Source: a virus
Taxonomy: Duplodnaviria > Caudoviricetes
Length of the DNA stretch: 64,000 nt
Virus record (IMG/VR): IMGVR_UViG_3300023283_000017
Span: 3,370 to 67,369 of that record
Strand: one strand, 5' to 3'
Below are positions 1 to 63,073 of this stretch, piece by piece. The number at the start of each line of letters is the position of its first letter. Position 1 is the first letter of the stretch. The notes beneath the pieces were generated by a model, which did no database searches, was not told the DNA's origin, and worked only from the letters and a program-made list of their open reading frames with translations. Both the position numbers and the translations under genes were made by a program.

Positions 1-136
1 GTGCCTCGCGCTGCTCCGTGGATAACTGTCTGGATAGGGTACTTCGCGTCTAGACGATCTAGCACCGCGTTTAAACGAAGGCGGCCGCGATAGTCGCGAC
101 CGCCCGTAACGAGTACCCGGATGGGTTGTCCAGGTG

Positions 137-367
137 TCACCGAACTTCGCCGCGACCCGCCGGGCTGCTGATGATGTGCTCCACGACGTCGCGGGCAATG
201 TCGTCCCATGTCAAGGTTTCGTCCTTGTCGATGATGGCCGCTTCACCGATGAGCTCCGTTAGCCACGTCCGGAGCGTCGCGTCCTCGCGCAGGACGCGCG
301 CGACAATGGCTGTGGTGCAGAAGTTGAGGACGATGCGGGTCAGGACCCGGATGAGAAGGCGCTTCAT
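137..367 (-). CDS. Hypothetical protein (76 aa) downstream of terS
   Basis: ORF track; ATG preceded by GGAG; same strand as the packaging module. Confidence 0.6.
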   Translation of the reverse strand: MKRLLIRVLTRIVLNFCTTAIVARVLREDATLRTWLTELIGEAAIIDKDETLTWDDIARDVVEHIISSPAGRGEVR

Positions 368-444
368 GGATGTCTCCTTATAGAGCTTAGGCGTGAGTGG
401 GGTGGATGGTCAGCGTGAGTGATGATGCGGCAGAAACAAGGAAC

Positions 445-480
445 CCGGTCAGAGCGTCAGCAGATTGACGCTCTGACCGG
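445..480. terminator. 15-bp perfect stem-loop (CCGGTCAGAGCGTCA / TGACGCTCTGACCGG), possible terminator
   Basis: Intergenic inverted repeat with a 6-nt loop; only a weak U-tract on the minus strand. Confidence 0.55.
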
Positions 481-485
481 TTCGC

Positions 486-569
486 TCACGGGCGCCAACG
501 CTTGGCTTCGAGCTCCGCGGCCTTGAGCGTCTGCTGCATCAGATAGACGTAGAAGTGAAGTGGGGTCAT
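486..569 (-). CDS. Small ORF, 27 aa (MTPLHFYVYLMQQTLKAAELEAKRWRP)
   Basis: Read by eye; GGAG RBS before the ATG; directly follows terS. Confidence 0.4.
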   Translation of the reverse strand: MTPLHFYVYLMQQTLKAAELEAKRWRP

Positions 570-593
570 AGGTGATCTCCTGTGTAGGTCGGT

Positions 594-1055
594 TCAGTAC
601 TCATCGCCGTCTTCCTGTTCTGCGCTCTGTTCCAGTTGCTTCGTGGGAAGCCCGAGGCTGCGAGCCATCTCGATGGCTTTCTGCCGGGCGTCGACTGCGC
701 CGTCGTTGGCAGAGGCGTCCTCGACGTCCTTCGGTCGAAGGTGCTGGTGCACGTAGGGCGCGACCTTCGCCGCGGCTGCTGTTGCGAGCGTGTAGTCGGG
801 AGGTACCATGACTTGCGTCCCGTCCTCGTTCAGCACGGGGTTACCGTTCGGGTCGGTAGCCGGGTAACCGCTGAGGGCACGCGCTGCGACCACGGCCATC
901 TGGACGACAGGATCCCAGTCCTTGATGCCGGTGTCGCGCTCGACGGCTTCCTTGATGTTCTCGAGGAGGATGGTGTGCTTGTGCTTCTTGCCGCGCTTGC
1001 TGAGCCCGCGCTTCGACCCGTCTTTCGCTACCCGCTTTTCTACCTCGTTTCCCAT
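594..1055 (-). CDS. terS: Probable terminase small subunit
   Basis: Basic N-terminus; AAAKVAPYVHQHL resembles the AxxxAPYxHxxL motif of siphoviral TerS; co-oriented with the portal at the other window end, consistent with a circular map. Confidence 0.6.
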   Translation of the reverse strand: MGNEVEKRVAKDGSKRGLSKRGKKHKHTILLENIKEAVERDTGIKDWDPVVQMAVVAARALSGYPATDPNGNPVLNEDGTQVMVPPDYTLATAAAAKVAPYVHQHLRPKDVEDASANDGAVDARQKAIEMARSLGLPTKQLEQSAEQEDGDEY

Positions 1056-1194
1056 GCGTCGCAGTACCTTCTTTCTCTTTCCTAGTTACCTAACTCGCTT
1101 ATATCCTAAAAACGGGGATTTCGTCTACCAGTAAGTAAGGTCCGCGGTTCGCGTGCAAAGGAACGTCGGACGACGCGCCGAAGAACCCAGAACG

Positions 1195-1395
1195 GCTCTT
1201 CACGCGTGCGCGTGCAGGATCCCACTAAAACACCTTCAACTGATCACCGTCTCTGGAGCAGAGAAGCTCTTCACGCGTGCGCGTGCAGGATCCCACTAAG
1301 AAACGTTCAACTGATCACCGTCTCCAGACGACCTAGAACCGAGATCTACTGAGCACCATCCCGTCGTCATCGGTGCTGTCTTTGCTGTGATGGCT
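1195..1395 (+). repeat. Non-coding element copy A: two 71-bp tandem units (starting 1195 and 1266) plus GTGCTGTCTTTGCTGTGATGGCT (1373-1395)
   Basis: GCTCTTCACGCGTGCGCGTGCAGGATCCCACTAA and TTCAACTGATCACCGTCTC each occur twice with a 71-bp period; homologous to 33575-33692. Confidence 0.9.
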
Positions 1396-1515
1396 AGGGG
1401 TAGTTTGAAAAAATAAAATGAAGTGCATGCGCGCGCATTGTGTGCGCGGCGCGCGCACGCGATAACGACTAATCGCCTCACGTCAAGACGCAGCGATGGT
1501 AGATTTTAAGGTGCA

Positions 1516-1677
1516 CTAACCGGCGTTTTCGATAACGTCGAATGCCTCACGAACCTCGGAGAAGAACTCCGAGACGTAGTGACCAGCGGTGGCGCCCACC
1601 GCAACTGCGACGACCGCCGAGATGGCGAGGCTGAGGAGCCCCGCGACGACCTGAGCCGAGAAGAATCCGTGTCGCAT
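1516..1677 (-). CDS. 53-aa membrane protein, loosely Flp-pilin-like
   Basis: MRHGFFSAQVVAGLLSLAISAVVAVAVGATAGHYVSEFFSEVREAFDVIENAG read by eye; RBS AACGGAAGGGG; directly downstream of the promoter at 1728-1756. Confidence 0.65.
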   Translation of the reverse strand: MRHGFFSAQVVAGLLSLAISAVVAVAVGATAGHYVSEFFSEVREAFDVIENAG

Positions 1678-1727
1678 CGTTCAGTCCCCTTCCGTTGCTT
1701 ACGTAGCCATTGGTGTGCCACCACAGT

Positions 1728-1756
1728 TATATAACTGAGTTATAGCGTCACGTCAA
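1728..1756 (-). promoter_or_regulatory. Sigma70-type promoter TTGACG-N17-TATATA with operator ATAACTGAGTTAT (1731-1743)
   Basis: Exact 17-bp spacing; the palindromic 13-mer lies in the spacer and -10. Confidence 0.75.
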
Positions 1757-1766
1757 TATGTAGACC

Positions 1767-2330
1767 TTATTCTTCAGACACGCCCCTATGCCTGTCCACC
1801 AGCTCGTCCCACTCGCCGCTCTCGATCATGCGACGAAGCGCCGAGTACTCGACGGCAGACAGCTTGACCGAACAACCTGGATCTACTCTATACGGCGGCG
1901 GATCTTGCTCCTGCGAGTAGTGGTGCGGGTCGGCTTGCGCGTGGCGGTCGAAGATGCCCAGGACCATCTCCTGCAGACGATCTCGCACAGCGTCCAGATC
2001 CTTCACCTTCGGCGGACGGTCGTCCACCCACCAGTCGTTCATCTGCGCGTCACGCAGGACGACGAGCGAGCAGATCGCCTTGGTGATGTGCGACAGGCCG
2101 GAATCCGGATCAATGTCCTCACCCTCGATCCACTGTTCGATGTGACCGAGCGCCGCATCCGCGTAGACGGATCCTCGCACGCCTGCCGACCGGTAGTTGT
2201 GGCGTCCGTACTTGACCGCACCTTCGAGCATGCCGACCGCAACTTCCCACATCACCTGACGCGGAACGACGAAGAACTGGCGCCACTTGCGAACGCCAAT
2301 CGCGTCTTTCGGATTCGTGTCTTTCATCAT
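1767..2330 (-). CDS. DUF5664-type dATP/dGTP diphosphohydrolase-domain protein
   Basis: NPKDAIGVRK...GMLEGAVKYGRHNYR...YADAALGH...DPDSGLSHITKA matches the family pattern; start moved to ATG 2330. Confidence 0.75.
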   Translation of the reverse strand: MMKDTNPKDAIGVRKWRQFFVVPRQVMWEVAVGMLEGAVKYGRHNYRSAGVRGSVYADAALGHIEQWIEGEDIDPDSGLSHITKAICSLVVLRDAQMNDWWVDDRPPKVKDLDAVRDRLQEMVLGIFDRHAQADPHHYSQEQDPPPYRVDPGCSVKLSAVEYSALRRMIESGEWDELVDRHRGVSEE

Positions 2331-2431
2331 GGCGTCACCACGCAAGTGAACAAGCCGACGGCGAGAAACGAAAGAAGGACCCAAGGCAAAGCAATTCGGA
2401 TCCTTTCGAAAATGATGATGAACGGGTGCAT
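2327..2431 (-). CDS. 34-aa hydrophobic peptide (MHPFIIIFERIRIALPWVLLSFLAVGLFTCVVTP)
   Basis: GGAGG RBS; stop overlaps the next ATG. Confidence 0.55.
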   Translation of the reverse strand: MHPFIIIFERIRIALPWVLLSFLAVGLFTCVVTP

Positions 2432-2441
2432 AGAACCTCCT

Positions 2442-2804: not shown

Positions 2805-3096
2805 CGCCGCCAAAAGGTTTCTTCGGATCGAACCCGTCTCTCTTTCTTGCATTGGCAGTGGCCTCCCGTAGCTCGCGGCGGAGTTTGTCGGGATCGTTCC
2901 ACGTGACGCGCACGAGGCCGAGTCCCAGGTTGAAGATGATGGTCGAGCCTCCGACGTCCACGCCGAACTTGAAGAACCAGCCACCGCCGAACCGCTGGTT
3001 TCCTGAACCTCGCAGACGCCACCCGAAACCTTGCCACGGCCAGCGGTCAGCTTTCATCCACAGCGAGACGAGCGGGACCTTGCGGTAGCCGCTCAT
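2785..3096 (-). CDS. Hypothetical protein, Trp/Gly-rich
   Basis: ORF track; start overlaps the upstream stop. Confidence 0.6.
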   Translation of the reverse strand: MSGYRKVPLVSLWMKADRWPWQGFGWRLRGSGNQRFGGGWFFKFGVDVGGSTIIFNLGLGLVRVTWNDPDKLRRELREATANARKRDGFDPKKPFGGDGSVPF

Positions 3097-3347
3097 GCGT
3101 CACCTCGCACGGCTTTGTAGTGGTCGACGAGATCACGACCGGCGGGAGTGAGCCGCCATTGGTAAGGTGACGTTGACTTGTCCTTGCAGCAATAGCCGAG
3201 CTCCTCTAGCCGCTTGAGCTTCGGGGCGGCCCAGAACCGAGGACGTCCGGCCTTGCGCGAGACATCCGACGCAGCGGACTCCGGCGGCGCGATGCGGTCG
3301 AACTCACCGAGCGCGAGAAGGCAGTCAACCTGCAGGCGCGTCAGCAT
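3093..3347 (-). CDS. Winged-helix DNA-binding protein (MarR-like)
   Basis: AASDVSRKAGR...KLKRLEELGY...WRLTPAGRDL; start set at MLTRLQ after a GGAG RBS. Confidence 0.6.
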   Translation of the reverse strand: MLTRLQVDCLLALGEFDRIAPPESAASDVSRKAGRPRFWAAPKLKRLEELGYCCKDKSTSPYQWRLTPAGRDLVDHYKAVRGDA

Positions 3348-3627
3348 CGGCTTCTCCTTTCTCTCTTTCGCGTAGAGTGCGGATGGCTTTGTCAGTGAGC
3401 GCATACCCGGCGCCCCTAGGCTCGCCGTCTGCTGACCACAGCCCTTTGACGTGCTCGACGATGCCGCGGTCGCGAAGACTGCGCAGGACGCCGCGCGCGA
3501 TCTCGCGAAGAATGGACTGGAAGAAGTTGAGCGAGAAAGCCCGTGCAGGTTCGTAGGTGAAGGCCCGCATGCGCTCGATTAGGCGGATCTCGACCTCGTC
3601 GAGCGGCGACCAGCAGCGACCGATCAT
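3325..3627 (-). CDS. Winged-helix-like protein
   Basis: VLRSLRDRGIVEH...GYALTDKA wing motif. Confidence 0.55.
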   Translation of the reverse strand: MIGRCWSPLDEVEIRLIERMRAFTYEPARAFSLNFFQSILREIARGVLRSLRDRGIVEHVKGLWSADGEPRGAGYALTDKAIRTLREREKGEADADAPAG

Positions 3628-3761
3628 GCAGTGCTCCCCGACTTTGGCCGACCGGCCTGCTCGTGGCGATTGACGGCTGCGAGCATGAGACTGACCAAGC
3701 AGTCTCGGGTGCGTTCGTGGGCGCCGAACTGCATGACCTGACCCTTGTAGGCGATGACCAT
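3624..3761 (-). CDS. Small hypothetical protein (45 aa)
   Basis: AAGGA RBS before MVIAYKG; stop overlaps the next start. Confidence 0.45.
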   Translation of the reverse strand: MVIAYKGQVMQFGAHERTRDCLVSLMLAAVNRHEQAGRPKSGSTA

Positions 3762-5041: not shown

Positions 5042-5629
5042 TCACGGGTCACCTTTGGCGAAGACGAACTCGTTGAGCCAGAACCGAACGAACTCGCCTT
5101 GCGCGATGGCGTCCGCGAGCGCGTTGTGTACCGTGATGTTGTGGTAAGCGCGGTCCTTGAGTGCACACAAGCGCCTTTCACGTGGCTCGTCGAACTCACA
5201 CAAGGTCGCCAGCACGTCCTCAAGCGTGCGTAGGTCTCGGTGCTTGCGATACGGGATAGGCGGCTCGACGCCGAACGACTCAGCGAGGCTCTCGATGATC
5301 GCGCCGTCGAACGCCGGTCCCTTCGTGTAAACGGGCGGATAGCCCTCGCTCTTGAGCCACCCGCGCAGCATCTCGATGGCGACGGCCGGAGGCACGTCCT
5401 CACCGATGAACGCGTCGAGCTGAGCTTGGCCCTCCTTGGCCATCCACCACTTGAGCGTGTCAGCTGACACGTGGCGCCCGGCGTCGATCTGCGACTGGAC
5501 GTCGAGGTTGACGGAGAAGGTTCGCTCGGAGCTGCCGTCGAGCGACACGGTGCACGCGCCGATGGAAAGGATGACCGCGTCCTTGTGAGTGGACAGGGTC
5601 TCGATGTCTAGTGAGACGGCAAGCGTCAT
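5042..5629 (-). CDS. DEDDh 3'-5' exonuclease (Rv2179c/DUF5051-like)
   Basis: LDIETL, ILSIGA, TLKWW, FDGAII, RDLRTL, HNALADA motifs. Confidence 0.8.
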   Translation of the reverse strand: MTLAVSLDIETLSTHKDAVILSIGACTVSLDGSSERTFSVNLDVQSQIDAGRHVSADTLKWWMAKEGQAQLDAFIGEDVPPAVAIEMLRGWLKSEGYPPVYTKGPAFDGAIIESLAESFGVEPPIPYRKHRDLRTLEDVLATLCEFDEPRERRLCALKDRAYHNITVHNALADAIAQGEFVRFWLNEFVFAKGDP

Positions 5630-6194: not shown

Positions 6195-6815
6195 CTACTG
6201 AGGCGGCAGTTGCAGGCTCGCGTTGAGATCGTCCCGCTTCACCGCGAGCAGGACTGCCTTCTTCTCGCCGGCGTTGCGGTACTTGTTCGCGAACGCGGCG
6301 ACCTCGGGCCAGAACTCGATGAGCTTGTCCACGGTCGATGCGGCCTCGAGGGTCTTGACCGCAGGAGCCATGGCGCGATGGATCTCCTCCGTGAGCTTGT
6401 CGCGCGCGTGCTCGAGGGTCTCGAACTTGCGCGCGAACTTGCACCCAGCATCATAGACGGCGGCGACGTTGCCCGTGGTCATGTAGTAAGGAATCCGACG
6501 GCCGCCTTGACGGCCGGGCGTCTTCGCCTTCGCCGTTTCCCACGGTTGCGGCAGGAACCGCGTCAAGCCAGCGGACAGCGACAGCATCTTGACCTGGCCC
6601 GCGATCATGACCTTGAACTCGTCGCGCTGCGGGAAGAACCCGTCGGGCTCGGCATTGAGCATTGCCTCGTGACCTTTGAGCACGTCGTCAAGCACGAGGT
6701 TGGTGAAGTCGGTCTCCTCGGTGATCTGGCTGCGGATGCGGTCGAGGAACGCGTGCTCGAGAATATCGCTGAGGATCGCTTCCCGGACGCGGATGTTGAG
6801 GCGAGTTGATGCCAA
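6195..6815 (-). CDS. Nmad5-like protein (nucleotide-modification-associated domain 5)
   Basis: N-terminal TRLNIRVREAI and C-terminal STVDKLIEFWPEV match the family pattern; TTG start after GGAG. Confidence 0.65.
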   Translation of the reverse strand: MASTRLNIRVREAILSDILEHAFLDRIRSQITEETDFTNLVLDDVLKGHEAMLNAEPDGFFPQRDEFKVMIAGQVKMLSLSAGLTRFLPQPWETAKAKTPGRQGGRRIPYYMTTGNVAAVYDAGCKFARKFETLEHARDKLTEEIHRAMAPAVKTLEAASTVDKLIEFWPEVAAFANKYRNAGEKKAVLLAVKRDDLNASLQLPPQ

Positions 6816-9256: not shown

Positions 9257-9309
9257 GTCAGTCTCCGTTGCTCGGTTGATCGGTAAAGCCGCAGCGCGAC
9301 CTTACCAAA

Positions 9310-9338
9310 CGTATAACCGAGTTATTGCCCGACCGCAA
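9310..9338 (-). promoter_or_regulatory. Promoter TTGCGG-N17-TATACG with operator ATAACCGAGTTAT (9313-9325)
   Basis: 17-bp spacing; upstream of the helicase gene. Confidence 0.7.
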
Positions 9339-9357
9339 CCGGTCGCTGTAAGCTTGC

Positions 9358-9894: not shown

Positions 9895-10479
9895 TCACCC
9901 AACTTCCATGGGCGTGGCACAGTCGGGGTTCGGACACTGGACAAACGTCACGTGCTCGATCCACTTGACGGTCGTCCGCATAACGAACTCGCACTCTGGG
10001 CACGTGCACTTGACCATGCGGGTCGTCTGCTTCTTCGCGCCGTCCTCCTGGGTCAGCTCCGCATGAGGCAGCGGGCCGAGGCTTTCGACGATGGGATCCG
10101 CTCAAGCGTGCCAATCGCTCGTCGGGACGGTCGCCGTGGCCTTCCCACCGAGACCGAGAGCCTTCATCGCCGCCTTGAACTTCGGACCATGACCTTCCTC
10201 GAGGCCGACAGCCGCGTGGATCAGTTCGTGAGTGTGGACGTCGGCGATGCGCGACGCGCACCCGAGCTTTGGTGTAATGAAGATCTCGAAGCAGCCATCA
10301 CCCGAGCACCTGGAGTCCCAGCACTCGCCGATGCGCGAAGAACGCGCGCCTTTCGACGTGAATCCGACTGAGACCCGGATTTTCTCGGGTATGGGGTAGC
10401 CGGCCCGCTTGAACACGGGCCGGGCGCGGCGGGTGAACTCGTTGAGCCAAGCCTCGCGGGTCTTGAAGTTGTGCGGCAT
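9895..10479 (-). pseudogene. SprT-like zinc metalloprotease with a C-terminal Cys-rich domain, interrupted by in-frame TGA at 10102-10104
   Basis: HELIH and GHGPKF motifs; the same frame continues 68 codons past the stop (LGPLPHAEL...KKQTTRMVKCTCPEC...CPNPDC). Confidence 0.7.
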
Positions 10480-10490: not shown

Positions 10491-10793
10491 TCAGCGCAGG
10501 ACTACAAACGCGAGGCCGTTCTCGCGCTCGGCGGGTGTCACCGACAGGTTGATCTGGGCGCCGCGCTGGTCGACGAGGACGCGTCCCACATCGTTGAGCG
10601 CCTCCATGAACTTCTCGCGCGAGATCGTGATGCAGGTTCCGCCCTGGAACCCACGACCCTCTTCGTCAGGGATCGGCAAGAACGCGCAGATGTGAACCTG
10701 GAACCGGACGCGATTTTCAAGGTTGCGCACGAACTTGACGGCTTCGGCGGTCGAATTGAAGAACAGCTCTTCGTCCTTGGTGATGCGTGACAT
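10491..10793 (-). CDS. Early hypothetical protein
   Basis: AACGGAG RBS; directly downstream of the promoter at 10821-10855. Confidence 0.7.
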   Translation of the reverse strand: MSRITKDEELFFNSTAEAVKFVRNLENRVRFQVHICAFLPIPDEEGRGFQGGTCITISREKFMEALNDVGRVLVDQRGAQINLSVTPAERENGLAFVVLR

Positions 10794-10820
10794 TGTAGGT
10801 TGCTCCGTTGCTTCGTTGAT

Positions 10821-10855
10821 ATAACCAAGTTATATCCGAGGACACCGGATTGCAA
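10821..10855 (-). promoter_or_regulatory. Promoter TTGCAA-N17-TAACTT with operator ATAACCAAGTTAT (10821-10833)
   Basis: Same architecture as 61975-62009; CGTTTAAACG abuts the -35 at 10857-10866. Confidence 0.7.
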
Positions 10856-10868
10856 CCGTTTAAACGCA

Positions 10869-14690: not shown

Positions 14691-15505
14691 GCCATCCCCG
14701 CATACAGGTGAGCTTGAACCTGGAACCGCAGACCGTTCGCGACCGCGTAGCGGGCAGTGTGCTCGTGGTTCGCTTGGTTGGTAGTCAGGTCAAGCAGCCC
14801 GGGTTCCCAGAAGGAGATGACTTCCTCGACAGTCGAGCGCTGCTCCATGGACGTCGCGTTGCTCGTTCGCATGACTTTCGCTTTCCGAGGTTCGCGCGCG
14901 TAGACGTTCATAGGCGAGACGAACACGTCGCCCGGGCTACTTAGGTTCCAGTCGAGCGCCCAGTCGGGAATGGACGAGTAAGGGGACGATGGGTCCGCGC
15001 ACATCACGAACTTGAGACTGTCCGCGCGCTCGAGAACCTCATCTCGCGGCGTCAAGTAGCGCGTGGCCACGCCTCGCTTCTCCATGCACTTCGGCGACAC
15101 GACTAGGTGGACATCGTCGGGAAGCGGTTGCAGAAGCGTGCCGTTGCTCTCGATCTGGATGTTGCGCCACAGCCCAACTTGCGTCTCGAGCCACTCGCCG
15201 AGCTCTTTCTGGAGCAGCGGCTCGCCGCCGGTGATCACCAAGACGTAGTCCTTCGCTTCGAGCGGCGTCTCGAATACCAGGTCGCCCAGATGGTCGTTTA
15301 AACGGTCGAAAGTCAGCCAGTCTCCGGAGTCGAAATAAGTGTCGCAGAAAGAGCACGCCAGGTTGCACTTCGCGAGGCGCACGAAGACGGCAGGAAGGCC
15401 CGAAAATGGACCTTCCCCTTGAAGCGTGACGAAGCAGGAAGTCACGTGGAGAACGCCTTCTTCGGCAAAGTGTCGCTGACCCACTCGCTCGTTGAGGCCG
15501 AACAT
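14687..15505 (-). CDS. queE: 7-carboxy-7-deazaguanine synthase (radical SAM)
   Basis: TLQGEG...AVFVRLAKCNLACSFCDT (CxxxCxxC), ITGGEPLLQ, IESNGT, VSPK. Confidence 0.93.
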   Translation of the reverse strand: MFGLNERVGQRHFAEEGVLHVTSCFVTLQGEGPFSGLPAVFVRLAKCNLACSFCDTYFDSGDWLTFDRLNDHLGDLVFETPLEAKDYVLVITGGEPLLQKELGEWLETQVGLWRNIQIESNGTLLQPLPDDVHLVVSPKCMEKRGVATRYLTPRDEVLERADSLKFVMCADPSSPYSSIPDWALDWNLSSPGDVFVSPMNVYAREPRKAKVMRTSNATSMEQRSTVEEVISFWEPGLLDLTTNQANHEHTARYAVANGLRFQVQAHLYAGMA

Positions 15506-16884: not shown

Positions 16885-17520
16885 TTACGTGCTCGGCCAG
16901 TTCTCTGGTAGGCGCCAGAGGTTGTGGCCGGCGTCCTCAATCGCCCACAGCACGGCGGCACAAGCCTCGACGTCCACCATCGCATCATGCGCCCCTTCAA
17001 AGCCCATTGGATCGACCAGCGCGCGGTATGACTCGTCTAGAGTCGGGAACTTGAAACCGTACTTGCCGGGCAACTGTAGCACCGGCTCGAGGGTCTTCAT
17101 AGTGCAGAACTTGGGTGTTTCCCAATATGCTTGTTGAGGCGCCGCGATGCGCGAGTAAGCGGCGCGCATGATCGGATCATCAAACCCCATGTTGTGCGCC
17201 ACGATGCGGTCCGCTTTCTTCACCATGTTGTTGAACGCGGCGACGCCGACCTTGTAGGTCGTCCCTGCTCGGTCGACCGTCTCTTGAGTGATCCCGGAGT
17301 CGATGAAGAACTTCTCGGTTGGTATGGTCGCAACGCCGCCGTGCGCGTCGAGCGGTTCCATGAAGTAAGAGCAGTGCGCCACGGGACGACGGCCCCAGTA
17401 AAGGATAGCGGCGATCTGCACAAGCGACGGCTCTTGAGTGAGCGGTACGTTCTTTCCTTTAGGTCGCATGCCGTTGGTCTCTGTGTCAAAGACGAGCGTG
17501 GTCACATCAGTCATGAACAC
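16885..17520 (-). CDS. DEDDh 3'-5' exonuclease (DnaQ/epsilon-like)
   Basis: FDTETNG, LVQIAA, VAHNMGFD, CTMKT, AHDAMVDV. Confidence 0.88.
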   Translation of the reverse strand: MFMTDVTTLVFDTETNGMRPKGKNVPLTQEPSLVQIAAILYWGRRPVAHCSYFMEPLDAHGGVATIPTEKFFIDSGITQETVDRAGTTYKVGVAAFNNMVKKADRIVAHNMGFDDPIMRAAYSRIAAPQQAYWETPKFCTMKTLEPVLQLPGKYGFKFPTLDESYRALVDPMGFEGAHDAMVDVEACAAVLWAIEDAGHNLWRLPENWPST

Positions 17521-17941
17521 CCTCTTTGTGCTTGGTGGCGCGCGACTCAGAGTCCTGCCGCCAGTCTCCCCACTCTCGCAACTCGTTCTTGTCGCGTTTG
17601 GTCGTGAGCACGCTCAACGCACATTGCGCGATGAAGTCGCTCGTAGGTTCGCCGTAGCGCACAACGATCACCCCATCTTTGACGAGTTTAGGCTCCTGAT
17701 CCAAACCCAAGATCCGGTAGTGCTCTCGAAGATACTCGCGGACCGAACGCAGCAGGCCGTCCTGCGCGAGTAAGACGATGTCCGCCCATTCTCCTGCGCG
17801 GTCATCATGGGTCTTGGCGGATTCAACTTCGTTAATCTCCTCCTCGATGTGTGCAAGCACGCCGGCGCGGCGCTCCCCCGGACCGAACGCCATGCGCCCC
17901 CACGCACATTGCCGTGCCAAGAAATCAAAATGGTCAGACAT
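17507..17941 (-). CDS. DUF550/MazZ-type dATP/dGTP pyrophosphohydrolase
   Basis: AFGPGERRAGVLAHIEEEINE...EWADIVLLAQDG...KRDKNELREWGDWR. Confidence 0.8.
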   Translation of the reverse strand: MSDHFDFLARQCAWGRMAFGPGERRAGVLAHIEEEINEVESAKTHDDRAGEWADIVLLAQDGLLRSVREYLREHYRILGLDQEPKLVKDGVIVVRYGEPTSDFIAQCALSVLTTKRDKNELREWGDWRQDSESRATKHKEGVHD

Positions 17942-23667: not shown

Positions 23668-23683
23668 GCACGTTTAAACGTGC
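23668..23683. promoter_or_regulatory. Perfect 16-bp palindrome GCACGTTTAAACGTGC upstream of queC
   Basis: Seen directly; member of the GTTTAAAC family. Confidence 0.7.
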
Positions 23684-23764: not shown

Positions 23765-24376
23765 TTAGGACTTCCTGCCTTTTGCCTCGAGCGGCGCATC
23801 ATAGCCGTCGGGAAGGACGAGATGGTAGCGAGCCGTGTCGCCTTCCCACTCGGTGCGCACGCCGTAGCCCTTCTGCCGAACGTCATAGTACAGGGCCGAA
23901 CGGATGGAGTTGTCGTCCCACGAAACCCCATCCCGCCGGACGCAGACGGCGCGAAGGTCGTCCATCGTGGCGCCTTTCGTGAGCAGGTCGATGATGGCTT
24001 GCTGCTTCGACCCGACGCGCGCCTGGATCAGCGTGGGCATTGGATCGACGTTGATCTCGCCGGACTTGCGCGACTTGCGCTGCTCCTTGGGCTGTTCCTT
24101 CGGCTCAGGTGCCTTCTCCTCCAGGTCGGGCTGGATGATGAACCCGGTCAGCTCCTCACCGACCACGTTCTTGGCTTCCGAAGGCGTCAGATCCACGAAA
24201 ACGACGATGCCAAAGCGGCCATCAGCGGTCTCGCGCACGTCGGTGCCGGTCGCGAAAAGAACGTCGCCGTGAGCGTCCGAGTGCTTCGCCAGGTCGCGCT
24301 TGACGGCTTTCCTTGCGCCTTTTGCGTCCGAGAAAGTGCGTGGCTCGTCTGCGTGTGCGATGAATTGGGTAGCCAT
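23765..24376 (-). CDS. DNA-binding protein with a C-terminal winged helix (DUF3489-like)
   Basis: SKQQAIIDLLTKGATMDDL...WDDNSIRSAL...GYGV; AACGGAG RBS. Confidence 0.6.
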   Translation of the reverse strand: MATQFIAHADEPRTFSDAKGARKAVKRDLAKHSDAHGDVLFATGTDVRETADGRFGIVVFVDLTPSEAKNVVGEELTGFIIQPDLEEKAPEPKEQPKEQRKSRKSGEINVDPMPTLIQARVGSKQQAIIDLLTKGATMDDLRAVCVRRDGVSWDDNSIRSALYYDVRQKGYGVRTEWEGDTARYHLVLPDGYDAPLEAKGRKS

Positions 24377-24619: not shown

Positions 24620-24637
24620 GTCGTGTCCTCCGTTGCT

Positions 24638-24674
24638 ATAACTAAGTTATATGCGACGAAGGAGGCGGGTGCAA
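24638..24674 (-). promoter_or_regulatory. Promoter TTGCAC-N17-TATAAC with operator ATAACTAAGTTAT (24638-24650)
   Basis: 17-bp spacing; the operator covers the -10 and start region. Confidence 0.75.
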
Positions 24675-24703
24675 CCGGAAGTCGCACCCGCTACCTGAAA
24701 AGT

Positions 24704-28989: not shown

Positions 28990-29053
28990 GACGTTCTCCC
29001 AGTTGCTAAACGTCACGGGCGACACGTTTAAACGTGCCGCCCGAAGTGCTCGA

Positions 29054-30894: not shown

Positions 30895-32664
30895 TCAAAC
30901 GCTTTCGGTCAACCACGACTTCAGAACGTCACCTGAAACTGCGGCGGACACGTCGCGCTTGTCCTTGAGTGCGCGCAACTGCGGCCTGTCTATCGTCCCT
31001 AGGCACTCGAGGTCGGTGATGGTGCAAGTACCGTTCTGACCGATGCGGTGAAAACGATCCTCGGACTGAAGGCGCAATCCTAGGTTGAAGGAGTTGTCAA
31101 AGTAGATCATATCCTGAGCTTGAACCAGGTCGATGCCAGTGCCGGCCGACATTGGGTTGCCTAGGAAGAACTTACAGTTGCCTTCTTGGAACTTCTGCAG
31201 GTTTCGTGCTTTCTGGTCGGCGGAAACGCCACCATGGTATTCGACAACCGACGCCTCGCCATATGCCTCGCGCACAGCAGCCGCGATCTCACGCAGACAG
31301 TAGCGCTTGTGTGACCAGATGATGCCCATGCCGCTGATCTTCTCCAGCTCCTGCATCAGTGCACTGATGCGTGGGTTGCTGTCGTCAAGCGGTATCCCCG
31401 GAACGTCCTCAGCCATCGGGTCTGCATCGTCAGGAACAACGAACCCGCAAGCGATCTGCTGCAACCTGACCAGCTTCGTCATCGCCATGGTCGCCGTCAT
31501 CGTTTGACCACTCTCGAGCTCGACGAGAAACTCCTCGCTCATCGACTTGTAGGCTTTGCGCATCGCTTCGGTCATCTCGAAGGAGCGCATCCGGTAGGTC
31601 TTATCCGGTAGGTCCAAGCAGTCGGCTTTAACAAGCCTTGACCTGAATGGGTCAAGCATCTTCCTGAGCTCTTCCTCGTTCTTGAACCCGGTGACCGTGG
31701 TGACAGGTTTCTCAACCTTCCGCGACTTCTTCGTCGTCTTGTCGTACTCCCACGTCTCATAGGTCTTGTCGCCGACTTGCTCTTCGACCGCAAAGTGTGC
31801 CTTGAACGCATGGTAAGGCATATTCTGCACGATCTTCGCATCCAGGAACGTGTACTGGGACCATGCGTCGAGCGTCGAGCCGGTGGACAGTGTGCCGGTG
31901 GTGATGTAGCGGCGCTCCGCCATCTTTCCGAGTTTCATGACCGTTTTGGTGACGGCCGCTCCCGGTGTCTTTATGTGGTGGGACTCATCGACGACGATGG
32001 CAGCTTTGCGCGAGCGAAGGAAACGCTCGCAGAACTTCTTTCCTTTGGCGCGGTGCACAGACTCGAAGTTGATGGTCGCCACAGCGAAGCGGTCGCTCTT
32101 GTCGATAGCAGTCCGGCTGCGCGTGTTAGATCCATACCACATGCCAGCGTCAACGCGATCCGGGTTCCAGAAGGCCGCGTGCCATTTGCGTTTAGGAAAG
32201 TGAGTCGGAACCTCGTTTTCCACCCATTTGCGGTGAACACCTTTCAGCGTGATGACTAGAAGAGCATCAATCTCTCCTTTCGCGTAGAGCCATTGACACA
32301 CATCTAGAATCGTCTTCGATTTACCTAAGCCCATCTCCCACTCGAGCGCAAAGTAAGGTAGATCTTTGATATTTGACCACCACTCACGCTGGTGGTCGTA
32401 GGGCTCGGTCACGAACTCGAACTCGACGGGCTCCTTTTTCTGCGGCTTGTAGAAGTGTGCCCACGCGAAACGGCACCCAGAGTGGAAAGCATCCTTCCCT
32501 AGCTCCTCAACCAAGGTGTCGAGCGCGTACCGAGTGGGAACGAACAGGAGCCGATTACCATGGTACTCAACGGTTGTGTTTAAACGATCACCGACGCGTC
32601 GGGACTCATCGTAGTCGAGCCCCTCGACGACGCCACGCGAGTTCTCAACCAGAACCTCAGGCAT
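30895..32664 (-). CDS. SF2 SNF2-like helicase
   Basis: PYDHQ, EMGLGKS, DESHHIK, TGT, GTGIDL, QSEDRFHRIGQ. Confidence 0.92.
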   Translation of the reverse strand: MPEVLVENSRGVVEGLDYDESRRVGDRLNTTVEYHGNRLLFVPTRYALDTLVEELGKDAFHSGCRFAWAHFYKPQKKEPVEFEFVTEPYDHQREWWSNIKDLPYFALEWEMGLGKSKTILDVCQWLYAKGEIDALLVITLKGVHRKWVENEVPTHFPKRKWHAAFWNPDRVDAGMWYGSNTRSRTAIDKSDRFAVATINFESVHRAKGKKFCERFLRSRKAAIVVDESHHIKTPGAAVTKTVMKLGKMAERRYITTGTLSTGSTLDAWSQYTFLDAKIVQNMPYHAFKAHFAVEEQVGDKTYETWEYDKTTKKSRKVEKPVTTVTGFKNEEELRKMLDPFRSRLVKADCLDLPDKTYRMRSFEMTEAMRKAYKSMSEEFLVELESGQTMTATMAMTKLVRLQQIACGFVVPDDADPMAEDVPGIPLDDSNPRISALMQELEKISGMGIIWSHKRYCLREIAAAVREAYGEASVVEYHGGVSADQKARNLQKFQEGNCKFFLGNPMSAGTGIDLVQAQDMIYFDNSFNLGLRLQSEDRFHRIGQNGTCTITDLECLGTIDRPQLRALKDKRDVSAAVSGDVLKSWLTESV

Positions 32665-33502: not shown

Positions 33503-33574
33503 GTATCCTCCGTTAGTATCGTCCCAGTTCGTAACCGTTCGCGTGAGCGCGTGCAAGTTGTTTCCGAGAAACGC

Positions 33575-33692
33575 TCAACTGATCACCGTCTCCAGAGCAG
33601 CTCTTACGCGCGCGCGTGCAGGATCACCCTAACTGACCTTCAACTGATCACCGTCTCTGAAACTGGGAAGTGCTGTTTTTGCTGTGATGGCT
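33575..33692 (+). repeat. Non-coding element copy B, homologous to 1195-1395
   Basis: TCAACTGATCACCGTCTC twice (33575, 33640), GCGTGCAGGATC, GTGCTGTTTTTGCTGTGATGGCT (33670-33692). Confidence 0.9.
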
Positions 33693-33797
33693 GACCGTCT
33701 CTACGATTACCCCAAAACGGTTCGCGCGCGTGTGATGCGCGCGTGCGTGACGCGCGTGAGATCAACCAACTGGTACCTTACTTACTGCTCGCAAATT

Positions 33798-33810
33798 ATA
33801 ACTCGCTTAT
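33798..33810. promoter_or_regulatory. Operator variant ATAACTCGCTTAT between the divergent thyX and HTH genes
   Basis: One mismatch from the palindrome; overlaps a minus-strand TATAAT (33795-33800). Confidence 0.65.
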
Positions 33811-33843
33811 GCTAGTTGGGTTCGTGATGCGCAAGGAAGAAGT

Positions 33844-34047
33844 ATGACTCCAGAGGACTTCAAACGCAAGCAGTCAGCCCTCAAATGGACCAACACCAAG
33901 ATGGCTCGACACTTGCGCAAGACACCTCAGTCGATCTCCAACTACCGCACTGGGCGGCAGCAGATCCCCGAGCATGTTGAGTTCCTTCTAGAGGCCGCGA
34001 TGAAAAGCCTCAGAGACGCGTCAACTAAGTCGACCCCGTCGTCATAG
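33844..34047 (+). CDS. Cro/XRE-like HTH regulator
   Basis: WTNTKMARHLRKTPQSISNYRTGRQQIP HTH signature; one of few plus-strand genes. Confidence 0.85.
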   Translation: MTPEDFKRKQSALKWTNTKMARHLRKTPQSISNYRTGRQQIPEHVEFLLEAAMKSLRDASTKSTPSS

Positions 34048-34640: not shown

Positions 34641-34868
34641 CTATGACACGATGACCGTTTGAAAAGATCCGGCCCTGAGCGACGGGCCAAGGTCCACGGT
34701 GCTCAGCACTTCTATAATGACCCGAGACGCCCGGACGGCGTCCTGGCCTCCTCCGCCAGTGCGGAGGGCCTCTATCGTGCTCCTGGAAACTCGGACGGCG
34801 TCCTGGCCTCCTCCGCCAGTGCGGAGGGCCTCTATCGTGCTCCTGGAAACTCGGACGGCGTCTGCCAT
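34641..34868 (-). CDS. 75-aa tail-associated protein made of 20-aa repeats
   Basis: DAVRVSRSTIEALRTGGGGQ twice plus a degenerate third unit. Confidence 0.65.
   Translation of the reverse strand: MADAVRVSRSTIEALRTGGGGQDAVRVSRSTIEALRTGGGGQDAVRASRVIIEVLSTVDLGPSLRAGSFQTVIVS
34732..34862. repeat. Perfect 60-bp tandem repeat, about 2.2 copies
   Basis: Positions 34741-34800 and 34801-34860 are identical. Confidence 0.97.
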
Positions 34869-49142: not shown

Positions 49143-49213
49143 GCGCGCAAGCCTCCTGTTTGCGGGATCCTAACCAGTGGCTCGTATCACCGCAACCCGA
49201 GATGGCTTGACGA

Positions 49214-49226
49214 ATAACTTAGTTAT
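49214..49226. promoter_or_regulatory. Operator ATAACTTAGTTAT inside the late operon
   Basis: Exact copy; intergenic between the A1-like gene and the adaptor gene. Confidence 0.7.
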
Positions 49227-49234
49227 TGGAATTC

Positions 49235-50878
49235 TTAGGTGCCGGCCCGCCACTTTCCATTGTAGCAAGTGACGATGGCTCGCTTGCCGTTCGCGTAGGT
49301 AACGACGAAGGAGTGAGACCACGCAGAAGGCCCCTTGTTGTACTCAAGACGCAGCTTCGTGAAGGTGCCTGCGACGTAGAGACCATCCACGATCTTTGCC
49401 GCGTGAGTGTGCCCCGTGTTGGCTTTGCGTCCCATCTTAGACAGGTTCAGGGGCGAGCCTCGCGACCCGTTCGGCCCGAGGTGACCGTGCATACCGCATT
49501 CTATGCCGCCAGAGCCGTCGTCACACAGGACAAATGAGTCATCAGGGCCCAGGAACAAGACGTCTCTAGATAGCCCCTCACGCCTCAGCGCTTCGCGCAT
49601 GACGTGGTGCGTATCGTCGCCTTCCTGTATCGCGCGATACTTGTCGAGCTGGCATTCCAGGAAGAAAATGGCGTTCTGAGGATCGCACCGGTAGTCGCTT
49701 TCGCGAAGCCATCGTTCCAAGGCGTTGTCGTGGTTCGAGTCGACCACAACCGTGGTGCACCACGGCCTCGAGATATCTTCGAGAAGGAGTTTCACTCGAC
49801 GTATCTCAGCGCGCACGTCGTCCTGACGTTGCTGCCACCGTTTAAACATCTGGTGTGGGTCATCGCGCTCGTGGTGGTTGCGAGAGCGGAAGTCGAGCAC
49901 ATCATGCGCGAATTGGTGGCGAGGTTGCAGCGTGTCGAGAATGCCGCCCTTCGAGAATGCGAGGTCGTAGATCTCTTGGTCGATGACCTCGCAGTGAAGG
50001 TCGCCCCAGTTGACTCCTTCAACGCTGCCTTCTTGGATTTCGCCTTCAGCAACGCAAACGACTCCTTGCGGGGTCACATCGTAGAAAGACCCATCGTTGT
50101 TCGCGTTCAGTTGCCGAACGAACCAGTCACCATCGTGGTCGATCTCGACGATGACAGCCCCGTAGGAGTGGTGAAATTCAGCTTGCAGACCGGACTTCTT
50201 CTGGATGTAGTTCATCAGCGTTGCTGTGCCGGTCGTGTAATTGAACTTCGCGCCGTCTTCAGCCGTCCCAGGGATGCTCTCAAGGGCAAAGCGAGCGTGA
50301 GGGAAAATCGCGGAGCTGCGCCCTGCGTATGTCTCGAAACCCGACAGAGGGCGCTTCGCGGTCGGGAGGATGTTTACCTCACCACAGAACATGAGCATGG
50401 GGGCGAGCTCGAGACGGTCGTCGCAGACGAAGTCGTCGAAGACGGGGTCGAACCACAGCTCTTCGGTGTCGTCCTCGTTCGGACCTTTCTCGGGCTTGAC
50501 GGCTTTCGCGCCGTAGGACGAGCGGTTGTAGGAGTAGCGAGACACCTTCAAGTCGGCGCCAACGTGGTCGGCGTATGTGACGAGGTTCTCAAAGAACGGA
50601 ACGTGAGCGTCAGTGTTGTTCTGGATCGAGGTCAAGATGTAGCGCTTCACACTGCCTTTCTTAGGCAGCGGCATCTTGACCGTCTGGTAAGCGTGCACTT
50701 TGCCGCCAGAGATGGGCTTGTCATACTTCAAGCCGAGCTCGCGGGACGCGCGCTCAAGTCGGTATTTCACTGCGCCGCGGCTGATGCCTAGCTCTCGAGC
50801 CGTCGCGCGCATTGATCCCCGGAACCTGCTGTAGGTCTCAAACACAAGCTCCGGGGCCAAGTCGAGCTTCTTCGCCAT
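49235..50878 (-). CDS. T5 A1-like metallophosphoesterase/nuclease with an N-terminal HTH
   Basis: GDLH, HD, SNHD, MHGH, GHTH calcineurin-like motifs; C-terminal YNKGPSAWSHS...YANGKR; N-terminal MRATARELGISRGAV. Confidence 0.7.
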   Translation of the reverse strand: MAKKLDLAPELVFETYSRFRGSMRATARELGISRGAVKYRLERASRELGLKYDKPISGGKVHAYQTVKMPLPKKGSVKRYILTSIQNNTDAHVPFFENLVTYADHVGADLKVSRYSYNRSSYGAKAVKPEKGPNEDDTEELWFDPVFDDFVCDDRLELAPMLMFCGEVNILPTAKRPLSGFETYAGRSSAIFPHARFALESIPGTAEDGAKFNYTTGTATLMNYIQKKSGLQAEFHHSYGAVIVEIDHDGDWFVRQLNANNDGSFYDVTPQGVVCVAEGEIQEGSVEGVNWGDLHCEVIDQEIYDLAFSKGGILDTLQPRHQFAHDVLDFRSRNHHERDDPHQMFKRWQQRQDDVRAEIRRVKLLLEDISRPWCTTVVVDSNHDNALERWLRESDYRCDPQNAIFFLECQLDKYRAIQEGDDTHHVMREALRREGLSRDVLFLGPDDSFVLCDDGSGGIECGMHGHLGPNGSRGSPLNLSKMGRKANTGHTHAAKIVDGLYVAGTFTKLRLEYNKGPSAWSHSFVVTYANGKRAIVTCYNGKWRAGT

Positions 50879-53626: not shown

Positions 53627-53745
53627 GATAGCTCCTTAACACTAGCCTCTGGCTTTCGGTTGACCACTCTCGAGGCCCTCGAGGTTACGGTCACTGAGAC
53701 CCTAGTGGGTGTCGCTGCGAGGTGCAAGCAGAACCTAGCAGGTGT

Positions 53746-53802
53746 ATAAGCGAGTTATCCGAAAAAGAAGGTGTTGACAACCACGTGCACCTCGTGTAGT
53801 GT
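53746..53802 (+). promoter_or_regulatory. Operator ATAAGCGAGTTAT (53746-53758) and promoter TTGACA-N17-TAGTGT (53774-53802)
   Basis: Consensus -35; would drive the plus-strand island. Confidence 0.8.
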
Positions 53803-53835
53803 GTAAACATCAACAGCACGCAACGGAGCATCGCC

Positions 53836-59663: not shown

Positions 59664-59861
59664 ATTTCTCAGCTTGCTTCTTGCAGTGGTCGATTTCCCG
59701 GCATACCAAGAACATCATAACATCTAGGATGGCGATGACTAGGCGCTTTTCGAGGAGATACATTTCGGCGCAGAGCGTAAGATCGGGTCTTCCACCTAAC
59801 TTTGCGTTTAAACGCATGGACGCCCACGCAAGTCTTGACGGTGCGCGGGCGTCCTTCGTAA

Positions 59862-59903
59862 TCACTTCTTCTTGCCGCCTTTGCGGCCCTTCCTCATCGG
59901 CAT
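59862..59903 (-). CDS. 13-aa basic micro-ORF MPMRKGRKGGKKK
   Basis: AAAGGAG RBS directly after the nrdJ stop. Confidence 0.4.
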   Translation of the reverse strand: MPMRKGRKGGKKK

Positions 59904-59914
59904 GTGCGCTCCTT

Positions 59915-61804: not shown

Positions 61805-61850
61805 CGACGATTTCTCCTCATTATCTGAAAGCGGTCGAACCGCGTGCCCG

Positions 61851-61884
61851 ACCCATCATGCGCATCCGTGGACAGTAGTGCAAG
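61851..61884 (-). promoter_or_regulatory. Possible nrdJ promoter TTGCAC-N17-CATGAT
   Basis: 17-bp spacing; operator variant CCAACTCGCTTAT nearby at 61903-61915. Confidence 0.45.
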
Positions 61885-61974
61885 CGCTAGTTCAAGGATA
61901 ACCCAACTCGCTTATACTAGAAAAAAGGTCCGGGACTAAGTAAAATTCTACCTAAAGTCTAGCGAAAGAAGGTC

Positions 61975-62009
61975 TTGCAATCTAACCGCGCATGTTATAA
62001 CTTGGTTAT
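61975..62009 (+). promoter_or_regulatory. Promoter TTGCAA-N17-TAACTT with operator ATAACTTGGTTAT (61997-62009)
   Basis: A-rich upstream tract; same architecture as 10821-10855. Confidence 0.75.
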
Positions 62010-62036
62010 ACCAACCAAACAACTGAGATTGAAACA

Positions 62037-62330
62037 ATGACCCATCCCAACGATACGAGCGTCCGCGTCACCGCCATTATCATGGAAGTGAACTCGACGT
62101 GCCACCGGCCCAATCCCAATCCGCTGATGTACTCGGTCCGCGTACCAGGCCACTCGACGCCTGACACACTGGTCGCCAGTGACGTGCTAATCGAAGTGGC
62201 GTTACAGCGCGCCAGTGAACTCGACGTGCCGGCTTGCAAGATCGTCAGCCGCCTGCGCCTAGCGATGGCGTGGGTTGGTGACGACAGCCGCGGCCGATTG
62301 CACCACATTGAGCAATCCGTCTCGCTGTGA
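62037..62330 (+). CDS. Hypothetical protein in a plus-strand island
   Basis: First ORF after the promoter. Confidence 0.6.
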   Translation: MTHPNDTSVRVTAIIMEVNSTCHRPNPNPLMYSVRVPGHSTPDTLVASDVLIEVALQRASELDVPACKIVSRLRLAMAWVGDDSRGRLHHIEQSVSL

Positions 62331-62437
62331 CGATCACTAGGCAGCCTAGCGAGGCTGCCTCGACAACCTCCCGAAGTCTCGCTAAGATGCCTCAAAGAGC
62401 TACCTGCACTTTTACAGCAAGCAAGAGGAACCTGCTT

Positions 62438-62680
62438 ATGTCCATCTCCCCTATCTCGGTGCAAATCTTCAACCGCGACGGAAGCCACGTCGGCGTGGTG
62501 TCGGTCAGCGCGCAAGAGCCCCTTGCGCCTTTGCCCGTCATCGCACGCGCGGCTTACGAGGCGGCTAACGTCAAGGCCGATGAGCACTTCGCCATCTTCC
62601 CTCACGGCGAGCGACTCATTCGCATTGACGGTGTGTCGCCGCGTCCTACCCGCAACCACCAGGCCCGGAGCGAACCGTGA
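62438..62680 (+). CDS. Hypothetical protein (80 aa)
   Basis: GAGG RBS before MSISPI. Confidence 0.55.
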   Translation: MSISPISVQIFNRDGSHVGVVSVSAQEPLAPLPVIARAAYEAANVKADEHFAIFPHGERLIRIDGVSPRPTRNHQARSEP

Positions 62681-62725
62681 ACTTCATTCTACACCTGAGC
62701 CGGGACACGGGTGCCACGAACTAGC

Positions 62726-62971
62726 ATGCGCGTCGTCCACTACATCGGTTTCCGGGGCGATGAATACCCGAGGGCCCGTCGAGTGTTCGGCGGGCCTGCT
62801 TTCATTCACCGAGTGCATGACCTTCGGGCTTACAGGGAAATCGACTGGGATCAAGACCTGGTCGTGTTCGCGAACAAGGAACGCGAGGACGTGGTGCGCG
62901 ACATTAATACGCCGGATGTCGTTGGGTTCGGGTATACCCCAGACGGGTCAGACAGGACAGACGACGTTTAA
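62726..62971 (+). CDS. Hypothetical protein (81 aa)
   Basis: MRVVHYIGFRGDEY...FGGPAFIHR; its stop lies inside CGTTTAAACG. Confidence 0.6.
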   Translation: MRVVHYIGFRGDEYPRARRVFGGPAFIHRVHDLRAYREIDWDQDLVVFANKEREDVVRDINTPDVVGFGYTPDGSDRTDDV

Positions 62972-63073
62972 ACGACCCACAATGTGCTCGGTTGTGAGTG
63001 GGGTGGTTAAAGCAGCCCTGCCGTCACGCCTGAACACAGGACGACCTCAGCGAGCACCGAGCACGCCTAGGCG

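Follow-up and report, generated by a model that had tools for sequence, protein, structure and literature searches.

Why does a GC-rich phage genome carry ten copies of one short, exact palindrome, and which protein reads it? The question is raised by IMG/VR virus record IMGVR_UViG_3300023283_000017, a tailed phage (Duplodnaviria; Caudoviricetes) in which the word GTTTAAAC is dispersed within and between genes. The window that was analyzed is a stretch of 64,000 bases (bases 3370-67369 of a contig of 67,369 bp), and the positions given below for this phage are positions in the window. The ends of the contig overlap by 127 bp and therefore the genome is complete and circular in the assembly; it is ~67 kb long with a guanine-cytosine (GC) content of about 59.4-59.5%. 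An original prediction, made from the DNA letters alone, proposed that the word is a selected cis-site for a dimeric protein. The analysis described here supports a selected site, and on balance YGTTTAAACR is probably a roughly evenly spaced, cis-acting docking word that is read by a SprT-like zinc metalloprotease encoded by the phage itself.

The word array in this genome and its relatives

All ten copies of GTTTAAAC were recovered at the coordinates originally predicted, and the part of the contig outside the window holds no additional copy. The ten TTTAAA hexamers of the genome all fall within the word, and eight of the ten copies are the full CGTTTAAACG, the exceptions being the one at 32578, with T as its 5' neighbor, and the one at 49840, with A as its 3' neighbor. 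The GC content had been estimated at ~62%, which is wrong as the measured value is 59.4%. The computed expectation is 0.15-0.4 copies, and the enrichment persists under all models: a dinucleotide-preserving shuffle gives 0.26 expected copies (largest 2) and Markov models of order 0, 1, 2 and 3 give 0.41, 0.28, 0.12 and 0.15. When 8-mers of the whole genome are ranked by over-representation under the third-order model GTTTAAAC is on top (with the overlapping CGTTTAAA), and the top 10-mer is CGTTTAAACG.

The coding copies were compared with a codon-preserving shuffle, in which synonymous codons were exchanged within called genes. This gave a mean of 0.15 coding copies and a maximum of 2 in 1000 shuffles, and four are observed. 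Three of these (QueE at 15296, superfamily 2 (SF2) helicase at 32578 and tape measure at 43555) are read as CGT-TTA-AAC, as had been proposed, and TTA is indeed the rarest Leu codon of the genome (28 of 1666 Leu codons). The fourth, at 49840, lies in a different frame and is read as ATG-TTT-AAA-CGG. The use of the rarest Leu codon in three copies and of another frame in one places the constraint on the DNA and not on the peptide. The non-coding 9.3% of the genome holds the other six copies (P 1e-4). The longer palindromes noted at 23668-23683, 29023-29036 and 59803-59816 were confirmed, and the gaps between copies range from 3.2 to 11.0 kb.

The nearest cultured relatives belong to the genus Nanhaivirus: Pan1, vB_DshS-R5C (R5C) and vB_DshS_R26L (R26L). 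Conservation in related phages had been named as a check, and these genomes contain 16, 17 and 20 copies of GTTTAAAC, respectively, several of them at identical positions. In all three, the word and the overlapping CGTTTAAA are the two 8-mers with the strongest over-representation, and the word is also present in three IMG/VR relatives with a GC content of just 52-55%. The 63 sites of the four phages give the consensus (G)C-GTTTAAAC-G(C), and 85% of the half-sites have C at position -1. At homologous positions either the exact word or unrelated sequence is found and never a decayed copy. Two sites are common to all four genomes, one at codon ~27 of the SF2 helicase gene and one in the gap upstream of queC; the others are shared by two or three. 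Around 27 of the 63 pooled copies (~40%) are intergenic (P ~1e-11), and a comparison of annotation tables with the site list places a word at 6 of ~9 convergent gene junctions in the four phages, where several copies provide the TAA stop of the reverse-strand gene. In each of the four genomes the copies are spaced more evenly than under random placement, with a coefficient of variation of the gaps of 0.36-0.59 (P = 0.006, 0.003, 0.016 and <5e-5), although these tests are not fully independent as the genomes share ancestry. Word density is lowest of the clade in the phage studied here, at 0.15 per kb versus 0.22-0.25 per kb. The claim of a selected cis-acting site is therefore borne out by enrichment under every model, by recurrence at the same positions in relatives of ~70% DNA identity, by all-or-none conservation and by even spacing. 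The ten copies are as follows.

69..76: copy 1, CGTTTAAACG; intergenic, immediately 3' of a GC-rich hairpin and upstream of a 94-amino-acid (aa) open reading frame (ORF) and TerL
10858..10865: copy 2, CGTTTAAACG; intergenic, beside a promoter-like palindrome, ATAAC-N4-GTTAT
15296..15303: copy 3; within queE, read as CGT-TTA-AAC; absent from relatives
23672..23679: copy 4, in the 16-bp palindrome GCACGTTTAAACGTGC; intergenic, between a terminator-like hairpin and queC; kept in four of four phages
29026..29033: copy 5; intergenic, upstream of the primase gene and at the top of a hairpin
32578..32585: copy 6; SF2 helicase gene, codons 27-30; kept in four of four phages and in IMG/VR loci L009-L011
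43555..43562: copy 7; within the tape measure gene, read as CGT-TTA-AAC
49840..49847: copy 8; within the gene for a 547-aa "DNA transfer protein", read as ATG-TTT-AAA-CGG; common to Pan1 and R5C
59806..59813: copy 9, in a 14-bp palindrome; intergenic, 4 nt past a GC-rich hairpin downstream of the ribonucleotide reductase gene
62966..62973: copy 10; convergent junction of the portal gene and a reverse-strand cassette; common to Pan1 (5531)

The SprT-like protein as candidate reader

The candidate reader is predicted to have a HExxH protease module at its N-terminus and a zinc ribbon with four Cys at its C-terminus, with a basic KKQxTRMxK arm preceding the ribbon. The association of its gene with the word was examined in several sets of phages. 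An alignment of 20 homologs led to 80 IMG/VR loci with a SprT-like gene and a GC content of 36-67%. In roughly half of these GTTTAAAC or the overlapping CGTTTAAA is the sole top 8-mer and in most it is clearly enriched; in the remaining loci GTGTAAAC, GTGTACAC or CTTTAAAG is on top. A second set of 80 IMG/VR loci was not chosen for the gene and is related through DNA polymerase A (polA). Here a word of the xTxTAxAx family is enriched (p<1e-4) in eight of the nine loci that have the SprT-like gene and in none of the 71 loci that do not (Fisher 3e-10), and there are 11 copies of GTTTAAAC in the 1.30 Mb lacking the gene compared with 379 in 0.97 Mb of the SprT-selected loci. When the SprT-bearing sequences were pooled (94 sequences in 34 lineages at 70% protein identity, GC 36-67%), 79 were found to have GTTTAAAC or a variant of it: GTTTAAAC in 64, GTGTAAAC in 10, GTGTACAC in 3 and CTTTAAAG in 1, with no word in 15. 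An all-versus-all BLASTP comparison of six-frame ORFs determined that the SprT-like family is the only one common to Nanhaivirus, the Arthrobacter phage Amyev, and the myoviruses Arya and Persinger. The word lies <100 bp upstream of the SprT gene in ~15 of the 34 lineages and heads the SprT operon in this window, Pan1, R5C and R26L. In the window this is copy 2 (10858), which is followed by the ORF at 10491-10793 and then the SprT-like gene; its counterparts are Pan1 56443 by alignment and R5C 68769 and R26L 21473 by gene order.

All four Nanhaivirus genomes encode the SprT-like protein, and its annotation in R5C and Pan1 as a "transcription elongation protein" is wrong. In the phage studied here the gene is interrupted, and with its continuation it spans 9898-10479.

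10102..10479, minus strand: N-terminal 125 codons of the SprT-like zinc metalloprotease gene (PF10263), containing HELIH...H and ending at an in-frame TGA
10102..10104, minus strand: the in-frame TGA, at the position of a Trp (TGG) that is conserved in all homologs
9898..10101, minus strand: intact in-frame continuation with the conserved linker, the KKQTTRMVK arm and the four-Cys zinc ribbon (the putative DNA-reading part)

The match of the 125-aa product to PF10263 is marginal (25.9 bits at a gathering cut-off of 25.6, E 9.5e-6), and many of the full-length homologs, which are ~195 aa long, have a precomputed match to the same family. In alignments A1 and A3 the residues H84, H88 and H97 do not vary and E85 is conserved to at least 90%, giving the HExxH motif and third His of a zinc metalloprotease. 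The reading frame continues past the TGA for 68 codons, which are fully conserved and include those of the arm and the ribbon. The TGA was confirmed in an independently built Logan contig (depth 71) from the only run that contains the phage, probably the source sample. TGA is the most frequent stop codon of the genome, and the genome has no tRNA gene. Because of the premature TGA a full-length protein could be produced only by read-through, and the reader of this phage is either recently inactivated or made solely in that way. The coincidence of the lowest word density with a broken reader gene is suggestive but is a single data point.

An AlphaFold2 model of the read-through protein, built with 29 homologs, has a predicted local distance difference test (pLDDT) score of 92. 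Its best solved match in Foldseek is the SprT domain of human SPRTN with DNA (6MDX/6MDW, probability 0.99), a match that is weak by other measures (E 2.4e-3, template modeling (TM) score 0.36, root-mean-square deviation 12 Å over 192 columns). The next matches are minigluzincins and the DNA-activated proteases CapP and IrrE. A homodimer prediction for the SprT-like protein (A1, two copies) scored 0.09 against a mark of 0.42, which is evidence neither for nor against a dimer.

The arm of the protein is altered in the phages with GTGTACAC and CTTTAAAG. The KKQxTRMxK segment that precedes the four-Cys ribbon is nearly constant among phages with GTTTAAAC, and in phages with GTGTACAC it is KKTQTTRYLK or RKADTNRHIK (small numbers). 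Locus L036 (IMGVR_UViG_3300012232_000059) has 23 copies of CTTTAAAG in 16.9 kb versus 0.19 expected and none of GTTTAAAC, and in its SprT-like protein KKKTYLLK replaces KKQTTRMLK. In Microbacterium phage Quenya (L013, NC_073428.1) the SprT-like gene is present with a degenerate arm and zinc ribbon, and there is no word of the GTTTAAAC family. Amyev has 23 copies of the asymmetric word GTTTACAC in both orientations and none of GTTTAAAC or GTGTACAC. Since a phage with an orthologous candidate reader uses only an asymmetric word, a symmetric homodimer is not required and the dimeric protein of the original prediction is not supported as stated. The readers that it suggested also found no support: the protein at 23765-24376 has only a sub-threshold match to DUF3489 and that at 3325-3627 has no Pfam match, while TerS and 3093-3347 fell outside the scan.

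The protein would bind the word directly, by means of its C-terminal arm and ribbon. For SPRTN and Wss1 the activating signal is DNA structure. By analogy with these proteins, docking could station a DNA-activated protease every few kb, where it may cut proteins that sit on or move along the phage DNA. The copies in intergenic gaps, at convergent junctions and at the promoter of the SprT gene itself might also act as local roadblocks or autoregulatory sites. A more far-reaching proposal is tentative and in our view doubtful: that a DNA-activated protease with a sequence address on the DNA destroys host proteins bound to or traveling on the phage chromosome, for example silencers, restriction or other translocating defense complexes, or stalled adducts. 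This would be a widespread system of counter-defense or genome maintenance, common to thousands of unrelated phages, with co-evolution of the word and the specificity of the reader (GTTTAAAC, GTGTAAAC, GTGTACAC and CTTTAAAG).

Several observations weigh against the SprT-like protein as reader. The support for this assignment is entirely correlative, and the nine gene-bearing loci of the polA set are the closest polA relatives, so that the contrast is confounded and the Fisher value is inflated by ancestry. The 15 SprT-bearing sequences that lack a family word are mostly short loci, and some of them have an intact arm. The arm of the GTGTAAAC group is without obvious change. In the genome studied here all ten words are intact even though the gene is truncated. 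To our knowledge SPRTN and Wss1 have no sequence specificity, and the suggested purpose of docking, a protease acting in cis, is drawn by analogy.

If the assignment is true, a very common gene that is labeled "SprT-like protease" or wrongly "transcription elongation protein" acquires a DNA address, the unexplained word arrays of many phage genomes acquire a reader, and the protein would be the first of the SprT family known to recognize a specific sequence. The system would be tractable, as R5C and R26L can be grown on Dinoroseobacter shibae and Arthrobacter phages of cluster AZ are available in culture, and it could reveal how a DNA-tethered protease acts during infection. The word switches between lineages are natural material for specificity swaps, and the stop-interrupted gene described above is a natural near-knockout. 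The arrays also predict regular PmeI fragments and may help to recognize such phages in metagenomes. No paper found in the open-access text connects SprT-like proteins or Nanhaivirus with GTTTAAAC or with a word array of any kind; the protease is covered in a preprint on Arthrobacter phages of cluster AZ, and the motif is not.

Alternative readers and comparison with known systems

The word could instead be bound by another sequence-specific protein of the phage or host, as a roadblock, insulator, operator or stoperator-like site, with the SprT-like gene as a fellow traveler or as one regulated target. This is unlikely, although it accounts for the ~40% of copies that are intergenic, for the words at convergent junctions in the four phages, and for the three or four of the six intergenic copies of the window that adjoin GC-rich hairpins at the position of a terminator U-tract; a conserved 67-aa protein with a weak HTH_19 match, encoded at 33844-34047, would be available as a reader. 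A terminator or roadblock role fits the convergent junctions and several of the hairpin-adjoining intergenic copies and does not fit the conserved copies within genes, and such behavior may be a secondary effect of the bound protein. Essential genes contain more than half of the copies, and a roadblock that acted constitutively in them would do harm. In addition, the role of operator for a helix-turn-helix (HTH) protein is already suited by the separate palindrome ATAAC-N4-GTTAT. No family other than the SprT-like one is common to the three unrelated word-bearing phage groups, and within 10 kb of the SprT gene no other real family occurs in more than ~12 of the 34 lineages. As the word persists in phages with hosts from Actinobacteria to Gammaproteobacteria, a host factor would need to be universal.

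The chance that the words are programmed sites of single-strand nicking or other cleavage, in virion or replicating DNA as in T5 and the Pseudomonas phages tf and LUZ24, appears low. Dispersed and fairly even sites on a linear packaged genome would suit such a function, and there are nuclease-like genes, namely an Rv2179c-like exonuclease at 5042-5629 and a Pan1 gene annotated as a nuclease. The known nick motifs are asymmetric and strand-specific, however, whereas the word is a palindrome, a cut in both strands would break the genome, and no nicking enzyme is common to the word-bearing phage groups. Least probable of all, and hardly credible to us, is a host-derived or modification signal, such as a Chi-like, uptake or HIP1-like motif, a target of the DpdA 7-deazaguanine transglycosylase or a restriction-modification site. 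The phage does have a full set of queCDEF, folE and dpdA, GTTTAAAC is the PmeI site, and HIP1 demonstrates that iterated palindromes occur in bacterial chromosomes (PMC5861425). Five Rhodobacteraceae genomes of 1.9-4.0 Mb (G001-G005, via loci L177, L178, L179, L251 and L202) were used as proxy hosts. Each contains 0-31 copies of GTTTAAAC, compared with 150-250 per Mb in the phages, and a host chromosomal motif is thus not supported, an exclusion that applies to the proxy hosts. The counts of GTTTAAAC versus its reversed control CAAATTTG are 0 vs 6, 31 vs 84, 2 vs 12, 8 vs 86 and 21 vs 123 in G001 to G005; the palindrome is 3-10 times rarer than the control in all five, which suggests that it is avoided there. 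Amyev, Arya and Persinger carry arrays although no que or dpdA gene is annotated in them, which makes a DpdA or 7-deazaguanine target unlikely. Restriction pressure removes sites and does not add them. This site is 25-65 fold enriched, and no methyltransferase or restriction endonuclease family was found among the 20 proteins that were scanned (of 85 ORFs).

A known system that the candidate reader resembles is SPRTN/Wss1. The phage protein shares with it PF10263, a zincin core of HExxH and a third His followed by a zinc-binding DNA module (putative in the phage protein), and 6MDX as best solved match. It differs in being just ~195 aa long and in its distinct KKQxTRMxK arm. No genome-wide cognate word is known so far for any member of the SPRTN/Wss1 (SprT) family.

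Sets of ~ten to several tens of dispersed short palindromes per replicon are the sites of KorB (12 OB palindromes on plasmid RK2), ParB (parS), Noc (NBS), SlmA (SBS) and MatP (matS). In each set the palindromes are used to load or bind one protein, which has its effect at a distance. The word array resembles these sets in consisting of dispersed short palindromes on one replicon. The palindromes of these systems are 13-16 bp long and their readers are HTH dimers, unlike the word and its candidate reader. A non-exhaustive Pfam scan of 20 proteins revealed no protein of the ParB family or of the HTH-CTPase type, nor is one annotated in Pan1, R5C or R26L.

HIP1 (GCGATCGC) of cyanobacterial chromosomes is also an exact 8-bp palindrome that is strongly over-represented within and between genes, and its function is unresolved (PMC5861425). 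HIP1 is a feature of host chromosomes, and in some cyanobacteria its copies outnumber the genes. The phage word, in contrast, is confined to the phages, occurs only rarely in the genomes of candidate hosts and can be paired with a candidate reader. The stoperators of Cluster A mycobacteriophages are bound by an immunity repressor of the L5 gp71 type (PMC9283540, PMC6550527). As in those phages, tens of copies of a short exact word are distributed genome-wide, many in short intergenic gaps, with one phage-encoded reader (a candidate in the present case), and the word differs between related phages. Binding of a monomer to an asymmetric site also has a precedent among stoperators (PMC9283540), which matches the GTTTACAC variant. 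Stoperators are nevertheless asymmetric 13-14-mers that follow the direction of transcription and have a lysogeny-maintaining HTH repressor as their reader, whereas the array considered here consists of 8-10-bp perfect palindromes, half of them in genes, has a zinc protease as candidate reader, and recurs as the same word in unrelated phage groups with hosts of several bacterial phyla. Among the 20 proteins scanned, the ORF at 33844-34047 is the only one with even a weak HTH match. R5C is reported to be lytic and without an integrase or repressor gene (PMC5454422).

Site contexts and other elements

Several intergenic copies have a terminator-like context: those at 69 and 59806 directly follow a GC-rich hairpin, that at 29026 is on top of one, and that at 23672 is 20 nt beyond one. 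This context does not apply to the copy at 10858 or to the four coding copies. The TAA of copy 10 is the stop codon of the ORF at 62783-62971. A core-promoter reading was rejected, as the distance from the word to the start codon varies from 4 to 143 nt and there is no consistent -35 element at the right spacing. A hairpin or cruciform was likewise rejected as a general explanation. Clear covarying stems are found at only a few intergenic copies, and the complementarity of the flanks is modestly raised (0.32-0.41 versus a background of 0.25-0.30).

The hairpin upstream of the primase gene is located at 29017-29053, with homologous gaps at Pan1 38649, R26L 38938, L009 13631 and L010 8504. The stem is GGGCGGCAC/GTGTCGCCC in the phage studied here and GGCGGGCC/GGCCCGCC, GGTGGGC/GCCCACC and GGCGGGC/GCCCGCC in Pan1, L009 and L010, respectively. 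Its sequence thus varies and its complementarity is kept in four of the five relatives, with only a partial stem in R26L. This hairpin is a structured element particular to that single site.

The genome has a second palindrome, ATAAC-N4-GTTAT(A), which also occurs in variant forms, for example TATAAGCGAGTTA. It is found in ~11 intergenic regions, a short way upstream of AACGGAG, the motif for ribosome binding, and these regions include the following.

1678-1766, 9257-9357, 10794-10868, 24620-24703, 49143-49234, 53627-53835, 61805-62036, 33503-33843 and 1056-1515: intergenic regions with the second palindrome

In some copies the 3' half is a -10 box positioned 17 bp from a -35 element of the TTGACG or TTGCGG type, and in Pan1, R5C and R26L the palindrome likewise ranks with the top k-mers. 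This set looks like phage promoters or operators. Two of the non-coding regions, 1056-1515 and 33503-33843, share the repeat blocks GAGACGGTGATCAGTTGAA, two copies in each, with flanks rich in CACGCGCGC. They bracket the half of the genome with the replication and modification genes and could be origin- or iteron-like. The non-coding gap 34641-34867 contains a tandem repeat of ~60 bp, GACGCCGTCCGAGTTTCCAGGAGCACGATAGAGGCCCTCCGCACTGGCGGAGGAGGCCAG, in ~2.3 copies.

Other words are repeated in two further phages. Quenya has 24 copies of GTCGCGGA and 21 of GTCCGCGA versus ~4 expected. Vibrio phage SSP002 (NC_041910.1; L007 and L008), a distant capsid relative with no annotated SprT-like gene (the gene was not searched for by sequence), has no GTTTAAAC, which is an informal negative. 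It contains a different and far denser array, with TTACTAAA present 131 times and TTAGTAAA 128 times in 76 kb versus ~9 expected; these are two readings of the 9-bp quasi-palindrome TTTA[C/G]TAAA.

The ORFs at 1767-2330, 17507-17941 and 6195-6815 encode two proteins with dATP/dGTP pyrophosphohydrolase domains (PF18909 and PF04447) and one with an Nmad5 domain. The presence of these genes beside queCDEF, folE and dpdA suggests that manipulation of the dGTP pool is tied to 7-deazaguanine modification of the DNA.

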